Positions 15,251 to 23,005 of a DNA stretch of 64,000 bases are shown here, piece after piece (the stretch's first letter is position 1; the number at the start of each line of letters is the position of its first letter). The position numbers and the translations under genes are program-made. The notes below the pieces were generated by a model. That model worked only from the letters and a program-made list of their open reading frames with translations, did not search any database and was not told the origin of the DNA. Source of the DNA: Frankiaceae bacterium (GTDB lineage: Bacteria > Actinomycetota > Actinomycetes > Mycobacteriales > SCTD01); assembly GCA_016650445.1 (NCBI GenBank), contig JAENVS010000012.1:1653-65652 (forward strand). Reading direction: 5' to 3'.

Positions 15251-15649
15251 ATGACGACGCTGTACGACGAGGTCGGGGGCGAGCCGACGTTCCGTCGCCT
15301 CGTCGACCTCTTCTACGCCGAGGTCGAGGGCGACCCGGTGCTGCGGCCGCTGTACCTCGAGGAGGACCTCGGCCCCGGGGGCGCGGCCCGCGACCGGCTG
15401 TCGCTGTTCCTCATGCAGTACTGGGGCGGTCCGACGACGTACTCCGACAACCGGGGTCACCCGCGGCTGCGGATGCGGCACGCCGGCTGGCGGATCGGCA
15501 GCGCCGAGCGCGATGCGTGGCTGGCGCACATGATGCGGGCGGTGGCTGCGTTGGACATCCCCGAGGACGCCCGCGAGCAGCTGGCCGACTACCTGACGGG
15601 TGCGGCCCACTCCCTCGTCAACGCGCCGGACGAGACGGACGCTCGCTGA
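15251..15649 (+). CDS. glbO: Group II truncated hemoglobin
   Basis: YDEVGG..QYWGGPTTYSDNRGHPRLRMRH..AHSLVN matches the GlbO (Rv2470) pattern. ATG 15251; an alternative GTG lies at 15245. Confidence 0.9.
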   Translation: MTTLYDEVGGEPTFRRLVDLFYAEVEGDPVLRPLYLEEDLGPGGAARDRLSLFLMQYWGGPTTYSDNRGHPRLRMRHAGWRIGSAERDAWLAHMMRAVAALDIPEDAREQLADYLTGAAHSLVNAPDETDAR

Positions 15650-15989
15650 GCCGGCGGGCGACGATCCAGCCGACGATGACGCCGGCGGCGTCGGCGCAGA
15701 CGTCCCGGACGTCGCCGCTGCGGCTCGCCAGCAGCAGCGACTGCGCCACCTCCGACAGGGCCGCGTAGGCGAGGACGGCCACGAGCCCGGCGCGGTGCGC
15801 CGCGAACCGCCACCACGTGGTCGCCGCGAGCAGCGCGAACAGGCTCGCGTGTACGAGCTTGTCCAGGCCGATCCCGCCCCCGCCCGGGGCACGCGGCGAG
15901 AAGAGCACGACGAGGCTGAGCACGACGACCGCGACGAACGCGACCGTCGCCCGCCGGTCGCCCGTGCCGGCGCCCGGCTGCGCAGTCAC
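15618..15989 (-). CDS. VanZ-like membrane protein
   Basis: Four hydrophobic segments and DKLVHA/DV.AD..G VanZ-like motifs. GTG at 15989 proposed as start. Confidence 0.55.
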   Translation of the reverse strand: MTAQPGAGTGDRRATVAFVAVVVLSLVVLFSPRAPGGGGIGLDKLVHASLFALLAATTWWRFAAHRAGLVAVLAYAALSEVAQSLLLASRSGDVRDVCADAAGVIVGWIVARRLSERPSRPAR

Positions 15990-16011
15990 CGCGTCAGGTG
16001 TCGCGGGTCGA

Positions 16012-16031
16012 TTTGGCAGCAAGCCCGGATG
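16012..16031. repeat. Left inverted repeat TTTGGCAGCAAGCCCGGATG
   Basis: Reverse complement of 17870-17890 with 1 mismatch and a 1-nt indel. Confidence 0.8.
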
Positions 16032-16072
16032 TTCGTCGGGAACTGTCAGAGGTGACTTGCACACTCGCAAGT

Positions 16073-17891
16073 ATGCCGTCCCGACCGCTGCTGCCCGTGC
16101 GCGTCGTGCCGCCGCCCAGCGGCACGAGCTGTGGGACGCGGCTGCGGGTCAGCCGGGAAGAGCGGGTCATGCTGCGCGCCGTCGGTGAGCACCTCGCGGC
16201 TGCTCGCGGATGTGACCTGCCTGCCGCGGTGCGGGGCGAGGCGCAGAACGACAGGGTGAAGCGCCTCAGCGCACGGTTCGGCATCCAGTCCCGCTATGCG
16301 GGCAGCATCGTGCGAGCCAATGACGCGCAGGTCCGGCTCGCCCGGGAGGGCCTGTGGCGGCACAAGCTCGGCCTGCAGCGCGGGATCGCAACCCTCGAGC
16401 GGCGGCTCGCGGCCGCGACTCGACGGGCGTGCGGCTGCGGCCAGCGACGGGGCTGCGAGGCGTGCAAAGACGGCTACCCGAACCGCAACGAGTGGTGGAG
16501 CAAGCGCCGGCGCCTCGACATGCTGAGAGGCCAGCTCGTCGAGGTCGAGCGCCGGCTGGCCGAGAAGGACTACTCGATCGTGTACGGCGGGCGGCGGCTG
16601 CTCAACAGGCGGCACCACTTGACCGAGGCAGGACTGACGCTCGCGCAGTGGCTGCAGCAGTGGGCCGATGAGCGGCTGTTTCTGTCCTGCGTTGGCAATG
16701 TCGGCACTACCGGCGGGAATCCGTGCCTGTCCTTGACGCAGGATCCAGACGGGCTCATGTACTTGACCGTGTCAGTGCCCGAGCCGGTGCAACGCCGGCT
16801 CGGCATACCAGCCCGAGTCCGGCTGACACACCCCGTCCCAGTCGCTCATCTGCCCGAGCTCGTGGAGCGGGTCACCGCCCGGCGCAGCACCGCGATCACC
16901 ATCACCTTCGAGCAGGGGAAGCGCGGCGAGCACGTAATGCTCCGGGCAGCCTGGACACACGAGCAGACCCCGGACCAACCGGACCTGCAGGTGTTACGTA
17001 CTCGCCGGGTCGTCGCGCTGGACCTCAACGCCGACCACCTGGCGCTGTCCCGGCTCAACCCCGACGGCAACCCCGTCGGGACGCCGCTACGGATCGCGCT
17101 CGAACTCAAGGGTCTGCCCACCGGCACGAGGGACGCGAGACTTCGCGAGGCGATCACGCAGGTGCTGCACGCCGCGGCGGAGTTCGGTGCCCAGGCGATG
17201 GTGGTCGAGGAACTTGGTTTCGAGCAGGAGACGACCCGGGAGAAGCACGGCCGCAAGAAGGCGTTCCGGGCGCTGATCTCCGGCTTCCCGACGATGGCGT
17301 TTCGCAACCGGCTGGTTCCGATGGCTGCCCGTCAGGGTCTTGCGGTCATCGCGGTCGACCCGCGGTATACGTCCAAGGCCGGTGGCCGGGACTGGTCCTA
17401 CGTGCTCGCCGGTGGCCCGACGGCCACTGAGGCATCCAAGAACGTCGCGACCCGGCATCAAGGTGCCGCGGTCGCGATCGGTCGGCGCGGACTCGCGCAC
17501 GGCCTGACTGCCAGCACACCGGCCCGCACGCGGGCACGAATGCTGAGCCGTCGTCCCGCACCCCACCAGCAGCAGCCACAGACCGCGTCAGCGGCCTCGG
17601 CGGCTGGGGATGGAAGCACGACCGGCCCCGCGGGTCAGGTGCGGCTCAGCGACAGCGCGCAGGTCAGCCGTGACGCCCGCGACCGGCCGGTTCAAGCGGC
17701 CCGGAGCAGTCCGCGGGTCCGATCGGCGTCCATCCCAGGCCTTCGGGTCGGGCGTGGCAGCGCTGACCGGACTGGCGGGGCGAGCCGATCGTCGCGGATA
17801 GGTTCCGCGACCGGTCAGCCGCTCGGGCTGATCGGAACAGGAGCAGACCGGGTTGAGCTATCAACCGTGCATCCGGCGCTTGCTGCCGAAC

Positions 17892-17908
<17 letters not shown>
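16073..17908 (+). CDS. TnpB-related (RuvC-fold, Cas12/TnpB-like) protein lacking zinc ribbon and RuvC-III Asp
   Basis: Motifs VVALDLNADHLAL (Asp codon 17021-17023), AMVVEELGF (17207-17212), AVDPRYTSK (17357 onward) and TRHQGAAVAIGRRGL (His 17456-17458). ATG at 16073, alternative GTG at 16052. The ORF only stops at 17906-17908, inside the flanking ettA. Confidence 0.7.
17870..17890. repeat. Right inverted repeat CATCCGGCGCTTGCTGCCGAA
   Basis: Pairs with 16012-16031. Ends 1 nt before the ettA stop codon (17892-17894). Confidence 0.8.
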
Positions 17909-19577
<1,669 letters not shown>

Positions 19578-20183: not shown

Positions 20184-20256
20184 GCGCCCGTAGCTCAGGG
20201 GATAGAGCAGGTGCCTTCTAAGCACTTGGTCGCAGGTTCGAATCCTGCCGGGCGCG
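20184..20256 (+). tRNA. tRNA-Arg (anticodon TCT)
   Basis: Manual cloverleaf: acceptor GCGCCCG/CGGGCGC, D arm GCTC..GAGC, anticodon loop CTTCTAA (TCT at 20217-20219), T arm GCAGG-TTCGAAT-CCTGC. CCA is not encoded. Confidence 0.9.
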
Positions 20257-20266
20257 CCTTCTGTGA

Positions 20267-22928: not shown

Positions 22929-23005
22929 GGTGGGTGTAGCTCAGCTGGTAGAGCACCGGGTTGTGATCCCGGTTGTCGCGGGTTCGAGCCCCGTCACTCA
23001 CCCCA
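22929..23005 (+). tRNA. tRNA-His (anticodon GTG)
   Basis: Manual cloverleaf with G-1 (22929), acceptor GTGGGTG/CACTCAC, anticodon loop TTGTGAT, T arm GCGGG-TTCGAGC-CCCGT, encoded CCA at 23003-23005. Confidence 0.9.

Follow-up and report, generated by a model that had tools for sequence, protein, structure and literature searches.

The DNA examined here, a 64,000-nt window from a Frankiaceae bacterium (GCA_016650445.1, contig JAENVS010000012.1, positions 1,653-65,652, forward strand), carries an insertion between its vanZ-like gene and ettA whose only gene encodes a relative of TnpB. Cas12 descends from TnpB, which normally belongs to IS605 and IS607 elements. A single open reading frame (ORF) fills the vanZ-ettA gap (15998/16073 to 17908) and leaves no room for a second gene; a promoter and terminator scan of the region gave nothing usable. 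A preliminary description of the sequence had placed the start of the vanZ-like gene at 15989, recognized the single TnpB-related ORF, and proposed a discrete insertion bounded by an imperfect inverted repeat within a conserved glbO-vanZ-ettA-ssb neighbourhood. The gene content was as described, and comparison with related genomes bore out the insertion. The two closest EttA proteins, with 96% (L165) and 92% (L166) identity, are encoded on contigs with the gene order ssb-ettA-vanZ-glbO-mscS-HNH, in which ettA and vanZ are spaced by 1 and 7 nt. No TnpB-like gene, and in particular none without the repeats, was found at the ettA-vanZ junction of either contig. In the orientation of the window, the empty site reads ...CAC G TCA / GTCGTCGC / GCTTGAGC... 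in L165 and ...GCG TCA / GTCGCGGG / TGAGC... in L166, and the occupied site reads ...GCG TCA G(GTG)TCGCGGG (element) GTCGTCGC GCTTGAGC.... Alignment with the two empty sites therefore places the insertion exactly on the ettA stop codon, where the element split a tightly coupled ettA-vanZ pair.

The inverted repeat consists of TTTGGCAGCAAGCCCGGATG at 16012-16031 and CATCCGGCGCTTGCTGCCGAA at 17870-17890, whose reverse-complement match covers 19 of 21 positions and is interrupted by a single mismatch and a single 1-nt indel, as previously given. Because of the indel, this terminal pair was not reported by a gapless repeat finder. When the ends of the vanZ-ettA gap were aligned locally with each other, the score was 30, compared with 15.2 ± 2.7 for Markov-shuffled ends, and a score of at least 30 was reached in 1 of 3000 shuffles. 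Since the sequence is G+C rich and the window contains many weak inverted repeats, we considered whether the pair is a chance match or a common host intergenic motif. The shuffling result, the lack of any further copy of the motif in the 64-kb window and the recurrence of the same tips at 15 other loci leave that explanation with a negligible probability. Comparison with the 15 other copies, all of which retain the terminal inverted repeats, also set the true ends of the element. These lie 4 nt farther out on each side than the 20/21-nt repeat, so that the element spans 16008-17894 (1,887 bp) and its ends read TCGA TTTGGCAG...CTGCCGAA CCTA. The last three bases of the right repeat, CTA (17892-17894, + strand), constitute the ettA TAG stop on the minus strand. 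With the ends moved 4 nt outward, the ettA stop codon is therefore the tip of the element and not host DNA, which corrects the earlier statement that the right copy ends 1 nt before that codon. The segment 16008-17894 is a discrete insertion, and there is little doubt that it is an inverted-repeat, target-duplicating insertion sequence carrying TnpB and an omega-RNA.

The 15 further copies of the closer clade that were fetched for comparison, with the window copy as the sixteenth, lie between unrelated housekeeping genes in differing neighbourhoods (L001, L002, L003, L006, L007, L009, L090-L096, L122 and L157), and each is a single-gene element. All copies share the ends TCGGTTCGGCAGCAAG...CTTGCTGCCGAACCTA, with a left end starting T(C)GGTTCGGCAGCAAG. 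The terminal inverted repeats are 20-40 bp across the family and 30-40 bp in the fresher copies, in which the inner block varies by subclade while agreeing between the two ends of each copy. We conclude that these are members of a small family of actinobacterial insertion sequences, present at one or two copies per genome.

A second empty site established the length of the target duplication. The enoyl-CoA-hydratase / hypothetical / dynamin neighbourhood of Blastococcus saxobsidens DD2, where one copy resides, is shared by B. capsensis without the element. When the element was removed, the alignment of the DD2 flanks with B. capsensis contained a single gap, the 8 nt GCTCCCGG, which sets the duplication at 8 bp. 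It is perfect (8/8) in ten of the 15 copies. In the window the duplication is degenerate, with 5 of 8 positions matching between GTCGCGGG (16000-16007) and GTCGTCGC (17895-17902), and for this reason the preliminary description had found none. This degeneracy, together with the slightly degenerate left repeat, indicates that the insertion is old. The target logo derived from 15 sites is GCTCA/GCnGnnGn/TGAnC, of which the 5' flank motif GCTCA occurs in 12 of the 15. Its core, TCA-N8-TGA, is a two-fold symmetric palindrome with a stronger left half, and the G residues at positions 1, 4 and 7 of the duplication reflect the third codon positions of the minus-strand gene. Staggered breaks made by TnpB followed by end joining were considered as the source of the duplication and rejected, because TnpB cleaves 15-21 nt from its target-adjacent motif (TAM), whereas here the distances between the joints and the conserved motif are 0 and 8 nt.

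In each of the 16 copies the insertion point is the TGA stop codon of a convergent gene, for which the element tip substitutes TAG. The minus-strand frame closed by this TAG is open for 90-776 codons in all 16 copies and for at least 199 codons in 15 of them, and where gene calls exist (the window, L001, L003, L006 and L007) they take the tip CTA as the stop codon. The former TGA is retained as TCA in the left flank. Since the tip merely exchanges TGA for TAG, the host protein is unchanged. In the opposite orientation the host gene would read into TCG GTT CGG..., and selection against such readthrough can explain the constant orientation. Replacing the stop codon in this way leaves the host protein intact and would make a conserved gene end the guide, which is the strategy of a homing element; a guide of this kind could possibly let the element home into relatives.

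Several features of the TnpB-like protein identify its class. The window protein is identical to a hypothetical protein of a Frankiaceae metagenome-assembled genome (MAG). About 70 relatives at 45-78% identity come from Frankiales-type metagenomes, Blastococcus and Nocardioides, and many others at 35-42% identity come from Streptomyces, Nocardia, Mycobacterium and Pseudarthrobacter. Sequence searches against Pfam, NCBIfam and PDB gave only sub-threshold TnpB/Cas12f matches (including TIGR01766, 1.8e-6; NF040570 (guided_TnpB), 3.5e-6), and the fold had to be compared as well. An AlphaFold2 prediction from a 21-sequence alignment had a pLDDT (predicted local distance difference test) of 72 and was confident for residues 1-480. 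Foldseek matched this model to AsCas12f (8j12_A, E = 5e-9, probability 1.0) and also to Cas12k, Cas12g and RuvC resolvases, consistent with a TnpB/Cas12 fold of WED-REC-RuvC architecture. Invariant positions are D317 (DLNADH), the VDPRYTS motif and R461-H462 of TRHxGAAVAIGRR, and conservation of E379 (VEEL/VEDL) is 90% or higher. The canonical D-E-D triad of RuvC is altered, its third position being the invariant His462, a variant that has been described, and none of the 21 sequences has a CxxC pair after VDPRYTS with which to build the C4 zinc finger. In the RIIIr-4 major clade of TnpB, the RuvC-III Asp is likewise replaced by His, the zinc finger is lost, and the proteins were judged probably active (PMC10691335). 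Both features are present in the window protein, a match by description. Over the core of the protein, the ratio of nonsynonymous to synonymous substitution rates (dN/dS) is 0.23-0.32.

Other properties of the protein are particular to its clade or to the window copy. A CxC-x5-CxxC motif (C120, C122, C128, C131; DNA 16430-16465), modelled with high confidence between two long helices, is invariant in the clade with inverted repeats; IS607-linked relatives have a shorter, cysteine-free stretch in its place. A profile search of 1.84 billion representatives found 350 clusters at E <= 1e-30, none longer than 651 aa and hence none fused to a transposase domain, and a tblastn search of plasmids returned only distant relatives with at most 42.5% identity. 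In the window copy, an extra G at 17821, in the loop of RNA stem 3, puts the family's usual stop TGA (17829-17831) out of frame, and the ORF therefore continues through the right repeat into the ettA 3' end.

The last ~180 nt of the element are far better conserved as DNA than as protein. In a structure-blind MAFFT alignment of 15 copies, RNAalifold recovered the long stem 1 and the hairpin stem 2, and we added a loop-tail pseudoknot for the pair count (Table 1). Over 33 pairs, 94.5% of cells were paired, compared with 34-44% when the partners were slid by 1-3 columns. Thirteen pairs showed changes on both sides, and the covariation score of 0.292, compared with 0.148 in shuffled alignments, was reached in 0 of 500 shuffles. 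G-U pairs occur on the sense strand of the TnpB-like gene. Stem 2 has a CG-to-GC swap in 7 of the 15 copies around a loop that is invariant in all of them and in which TAGGTTC (17799-17805) complements the 3' tail. Stem 3 covaries to CACCC...GGGTG in another subclade; it was left out of the covariation count, being misaligned by one column between clades, and the RNAalifold pairs 142-144 with 212-214 were dropped in its favour on the strength of single-sequence folds. In every copy such folds yielded stem 3, then a long terminal hairpin and, at the end, an unpaired GAACCUA; the terminal hairpin formed in all 15 with clade-specific sequences. As DNA, this hairpin has z = -5.2 in L001 and -1.3 in the window.

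The pseudoknot is further suggested by the IS607-type relatives, in which the loop and tail are ACCGUUC/GAACGGU instead of the (A)UAGGUUC/GAACCUA found here, a difference of three compensatory pair changes. The C-terminal codons overlapped by the structure have a synonymous rate (dS) 2-4 fold lower than the core and a dN/dS raised to 0.5-1.1. Rfam held no model matching the 3' RNA; only two tRNAs in the window were matched. A pseudoknot adjoining the guide is the layout of TnpB omega-RNAs. From the conserved pairing, the 3' end of the gene appears to overlap an omega-RNA-like scaffold that stops exactly at the right tip, with the flank as its presumptive guide, and the right inverted repeat is the final stem and pseudoknot tail of this predicted RNA.

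These features also bear on whether the locus holds an immobile, domesticated TnpB-like regulator of the TldR kind, with the repeats serving as an operator or terminator. The window copy is old by its duplication and left repeat, its right hairpin is weakened, and the canonical RuvC-III Asp is missing; moreover, L007 and L095 share a site at the 3' end of pfk where the element has diverged more than the gene. Against this, the same element occupies at least 14 unrelated neighbourhoods with fresh 8/8 duplications, close relatives have empty sites, the D/E/H positions are invariant or nearly so with a substitution judged likely to be active (PMC10691335), and no partner gene is conserved. Domestication is thus contradicted for the family and very improbable overall, though the window copy by itself may have lost its mobility.

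Table 1. Features of the element and of its insertion site in the window.
Feature	Position	Strand	Basis or remark
Whole mobile element, 1,887 bp	16008..17894	+	End comparison with 15 copies; missing at the ettA-vanZ junction of L165 and L166
Left terminal inverted repeat, TCGATTTGGCAGCAAGCCCGGATG, slightly degenerate relative to the family consensus TCGGTTCGGCAGCAAGSCCGGATG	16008..16031	+	
Right terminal inverted repeat, CATCCGGCGCTTGCTGCCGAACCTA; also 3' arm of the last predicted RNA stem plus 7-nt tail	17870..17894	+	
Left, degenerate copy of the target duplication, GTCGCGGG	16000..16007	+	Identical to the L166 ettA 3' end
Right copy of the 8-bp target duplication, GTCGTCGC; also last ettA codons	17895..17902	+	
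Relic of the original ettA TGA stop (TCA on + strand), now on the vanZ side	15994..15996	-	Alignment with empty sites in L165 and L166
TnpB-like ORF, 611 aa; folded core residues 1-480, disordered 480-611	16073..17908	+	
Predicted RNA stem 1, long imperfect hairpin	17716..17773	+	20 pairs, 10 with compensatory double changes
Predicted RNA stem 2, GTCGCG - loop GATAGGTTC - CGCGAC	17791..17811	+	6 pairs, 98.9% paired
Predicted RNA stem 3, core CAGCC...GGCTG at 17816-17830	17812..17834	+	Alignment read by eye; single-sequence folds
Predicted terminal RNA hairpin, 3' arm is the right inverted repeat; degenerate in the window copy	17840..17887	+	
Single-stranded tail GAACCTA, proposed pseudoknot partner of the stem 2 loop	17888..17894	+	Invariant in 15/15 copies; a guide would begin directly behind it, in the flank
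ettA, host gene, stop supplied by the element tip	17892..19574	-	100% identical to P0121, named EttA; L165 ortholog 96%
vanZ-like host gene	15618..15989	-	PF04892 on orthologs; in empty loci starts 1-7 nt past the ettA stop

At the host locus, the short distance between the ettA stop and the vanZ start in the empty loci (window 15987-16007 compared with L165:5680-5700 and L166:5677-5700) makes co-transcription and translational coupling of the two genes probable. They are now 1.9 kb apart, and vanZ may be silenced or driven from the left end of the element. The left duplication relic has the sequence in which ettA ends in L166, the more distant relative, whose site is a perfect fit to the target consensus TCA-N8-TGAGC. 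The right copy has the sequence in which ettA ends in L165, the closest relative, where the site is empty. Either the insertion is older than the split and was lost in L165, or the end of ettA was exchanged later. The genes for tRNA-Arg(TCT) at 20184-20258 and tRNA-His(GTG) at 22930-23005, a few kb past ettA, are unrelated to the element.

Several individual copies are of interest in their own right. Those at L122:2427-3775 (1,349 bp) and L157:2424-3155 (732 bp) have lost internal sequence but keep both repeats and perfect 8-bp duplications; either they are non-autonomous derivatives or the deletions arose in place. L092 and L095 are two copies on one MAG contig, CAVUBO010000020.1 (463-470 kb and 764-771 kb); the right flank of the L092 copy begins with T instead of G, and no recognizable left tip was found for it. 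The copies at L007:6752-7550 (Nocardioides ginsengisegetis) and L095:4229-5030 (Actinomycetota MAG) both lie on the pfk stop codon with the duplication GCCGAAG(A). Identity between the two is 84% in the right flank and 77% in the element, the left flanks being unrelated, and the site represents either an ancient shared insertion or one site used again through homing. At L093 (2410-2436 and 4244-4265), the end of the convergent reading frame is overlapped by a perfect 15-bp hairpin (CCGGTGCTCGCCCTC AGCC GAGGGCGAGCACCGG) whose loop contains the target, and the duplicated bases still match at only 5 of 8 positions. A scan of viral contigs with a 14-nt tip gave 104 matches, of which only those in L170 and L196 had a left-like motif; both are a phage portal gene and were dismissed as chance.

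The origin of the family can be read from its more distant relatives. A metagenome scan with a wide alignment recovered almost only the IS607-type clade, which we used as a contrast and not to define ends. In this clade of 35-42% identity, the tnpB gene is immediately preceded by sequence for the C-terminus of an IS607-type serine recombinase (...VLTSFCARLYGRRSARNRA...) at no fewer than 47 of 139 loci, and no inverted repeats were found at its loci. Six copies in Pseudarthrobacter sp. H2 define ends GGGGT... and ...CTAGGAACGGT(G), with neither repeat nor duplication, in keeping with the published rule for IS607 (PMC6188088, PMC13565253). These six (NZ_CP189594; L121, L127, L131, L132, L138 and L146) are 87-95% identical, and the IS607-type clade is therefore actively mobile, unlike the present family with its one or two copies per genome. 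Four Nocardia copies of the IS607 type, L130 (4023-4036), L126, L133 and L136, carry GGT(T/C)CGGCAGCAAGC, nearly the 14-nt core of the repeat, in direct orientation just 5' of the RNA pseudoknot hairpin, and an omega-RNA segment may have given rise to the inverted repeat of the window's clade.

These relationships raise the question of whether the element is simply a member of IS607 or of IS200/IS605 (IS1341-like) that lacks tnpA and is moved by a serine or Y1 TnpA, its repeat being a hairpin feature. The adjoining recombinases of the relatives speak for this, as does an omega-RNA architecture that appears homologous. However, an exact 8-bp duplication and true terminal inverted repeats are absent from both families (PMC6188088, PMC13565253), the IS607-type relatives have GGGG.../...GGAACGGTG ends without repeat or duplication, and the left end of the element has no hairpin (z = -0.7 to +1.2). 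We regard this assignment as highly unlikely, in agreement with the preliminary view that the rules of these families do not fit. Because the relatives are linked to tnpA and lack repeats and duplication, the window's clade is instead a branch that lost tnpA and gained both; it clearly descends from IS607-linked TnpBs.

What, then, moves the element? As had been noted, no tnpA, serine recombinase or DDE gene lies inside it. Three features, namely the inverted-repeat ends, an 8-bp stagger of fixed length and a target with two-fold symmetry, together point to a DDE-type (RNase-H-fold) transposase acting as a symmetric complex, and, with no such gene in the element, an unlinked transposase acting in trans is the most likely source. 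Inverted terminal repeats are found in all DDE-associated branches of TnpB, and solo TnpBs between such ends are presumed to be mobilized in trans (PMC10691335). By analogy, the TnpB-like protein and its RNA would act as they do in IS605 and IS607, and we infer that the protein performs RNA-guided, TAM-dependent cleavage. Transcripts running past the right tip would take up the flanking ettA 3' end as a guide. The complex would then cut unoccupied sites (candidate TAM GCTCA, followed by N8-TGA...), the predicted cleavage target at the empty site being GCTCA followed by GCTCCCGGTGAACC..., and repair would copy from the occupied site. The left junction keeps only 8-9 matching bases, and we propose that it escapes cutting for this reason. 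We place the probability of this entire model, a homing TnpB and omega-RNA insertion sequence mobilized by a DDE enzyme in trans, at roughly 55%.

A number of observations weigh against the model. The partner transposase was not found in the 64-kb window or in any fetched flank, and no other element with these repeats was found in ~1.8 Mb of fetched loci or in viral contigs. The tips are invariant and the TnpB-like gene is kept in each copy, down to 49% protein identity, a persistence that would be unusually durable for a non-autonomous element, and the copy number is low. By a rough estimate, about three-quarters of neutral GCTCA sites would be intergenic, yet no intergenic insertion occurs among the 16 copies. 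Within the model, selection is the only explanation for this, and it explains it less well than it does the constant orientation. The roles of the RNA and of cleavage are predictions from sequence, and the candidate TAM is drawn from 15 sites that were also filtered by selection.

Some of these observations would be expected if the TnpB-like protein were itself the transposase. Its RuvC site (D317, E379, H462), perhaps in a dimer, would cut at the inverted repeats, with aid from the clade-specific CxC...CxxC or from the RNA, and would join the ends to TCA/N8/TGA with an 8-bp stagger. The element contains nothing else, every full-length copy keeps the ORF under purifying selection, and tips and gene have been inherited together across deep divergence with no partner element found. 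The four invariant cysteines C120, C122, C128 and C131 are confined to the inverted-repeat clade; a TCA half-site borders the duplication on either strand, as would result if each of two protomers made a TAM-like contact; and the loop of RNA stem 2 is complementary to both DNA tips. To our knowledge, however, no TnpB or Cas12 protein carries out strand transfer. The complete omega-RNA, with the usual pseudoknot at the guide position, fits the standard nuclease role; solo tnpB elements that are moved in trans are common; and the absence of a partner rests on small fragments. In addition, TnpB is dispensable for transposition in IS605 and IS607 (PMC13565253). We therefore rank the TnpB-like protein below a DDE-type enzyme in trans as the mobilizer and consider such a role unlikely. 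The more specific idea that an RNA-guided-nuclease fold took over repeat recognition and staggered strand transfer after the IS607 recombinase was lost, its old TAM contact TCA now selecting half-sites, seems to us less probable still.

Scarless excision in IS605 and IS607 is thought to make RNA-guided 'restorative homing' useful. The family described here offers a testable case of how a TnpB/omega-RNA module switches its transposition partner or, possibly, takes over that job. Its insertion rule makes copies easy to recognize, whereas annotation pipelines label such genes 'hypothetical' or 'transposase', so that the boundaries of the elements would go unreported.

Among known systems, IS200/IS605 differs from the present element in several respects: there is no tnpA here, only the right end folds, and inverted repeats and an 8-bp duplication are present. 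The defining features of IS607 are missing from every copy of the inverted-repeat clade, although the relatives at 35-42% identity have them. Elements of the IS1341 type, the tnpB-only members of IS200/IS605, resemble this one in consisting of a single tnpB and omega-RNA with no transposase gene and in their low copy number. Both of their ends carry subterminal hairpins, and they insert on the 3' side of a 4-5-nt motif without duplicating the target, whereas here only the right end is structured and inverted-repeat ends flanked by an 8-bp duplication are found. IS607 elements with a RIIIr-4-like TnpB encode the nearest protein relatives (35-42%) and share the D/E/H motif, the loss of the zinc finger and an omega-RNA hairpin whose loop pairs with the 7 nt preceding the guide. 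They differ in having a serine recombinase tnpA and asymmetric ends (GGGG.../...GGAACGGTG) without repeats or duplication.

Two comparisons concern the ends. IS6/IS26 elements also make an 8-bp duplication, and their short inverted repeats likewise have a GG close to the tip and contain a GCAA(G/A) block; GGTTCGGCAGCAAG resembles the IS257 repeat, GGTTCTGTTGCAAAG. IS6/IS26 repeats have GG at the outermost position along with cTGTt and caaa motifs. The fully conserved TGT of cTGTt is missing here, two extra bases lie outside the GG, no IS6 transposase is present, and the element is twice the usual length. Membership in IS6/IS26 was rejected, the GG lying 2 nt inside the tip and only the GCAA block being common to both, and we regard the likeness as a lead towards a trans-acting enzyme and not as evidence of membership. 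Fanzor elements in eukaryotic DDE transposons likewise place a TnpB homologue and its RNA within inverted-repeat ends flanked by a target duplication, with the RNA scaffold extending into the inverted repeat. They occur in eukaryotes or viruses, and as a rule they duplicate a short, invariant motif (TA, TTAA) that also serves as the TAM; here, in contrast, the 8 duplicated bp vary and the conserved motif lies just outside them.

The terminal inverted repeats and fixed-length duplication of DDE-type insertion sequences are found here without a DDE transposase of the element's own. The IS630, ISL2 and IS1031-type transposases generate duplications of 2-3 bp. TnpB inside inverted-repeat transposon ends is already known in general terms, and the RIIIr-4 protein type has been reported as well (PMC10691335); the preliminary claim that mobilization is not explained by known families was thus too strong for the architecture and the protein, and stands for the enzyme that moves this clade. 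In the solo and DDE-associated TnpBs of Altae-Tran et al. (2023, PNAS; PMC10691335), as here, the 3' end of tnpB lies within 250 bp of the transposon end, the inverted terminal repeats are symmetric, and some copies have no transposase and are presumed to be mobilized in trans. Their partners are IS630, ISL2 and IS1031-type transposases. The element described here makes an 8-bp duplication, and no partner was found for it in the fetched loci. It further differs from them in encoding an Asp-to-His, zinc-finger-less protein whose relatives are linked to IS607, and in replacing a stop codon with every copy.

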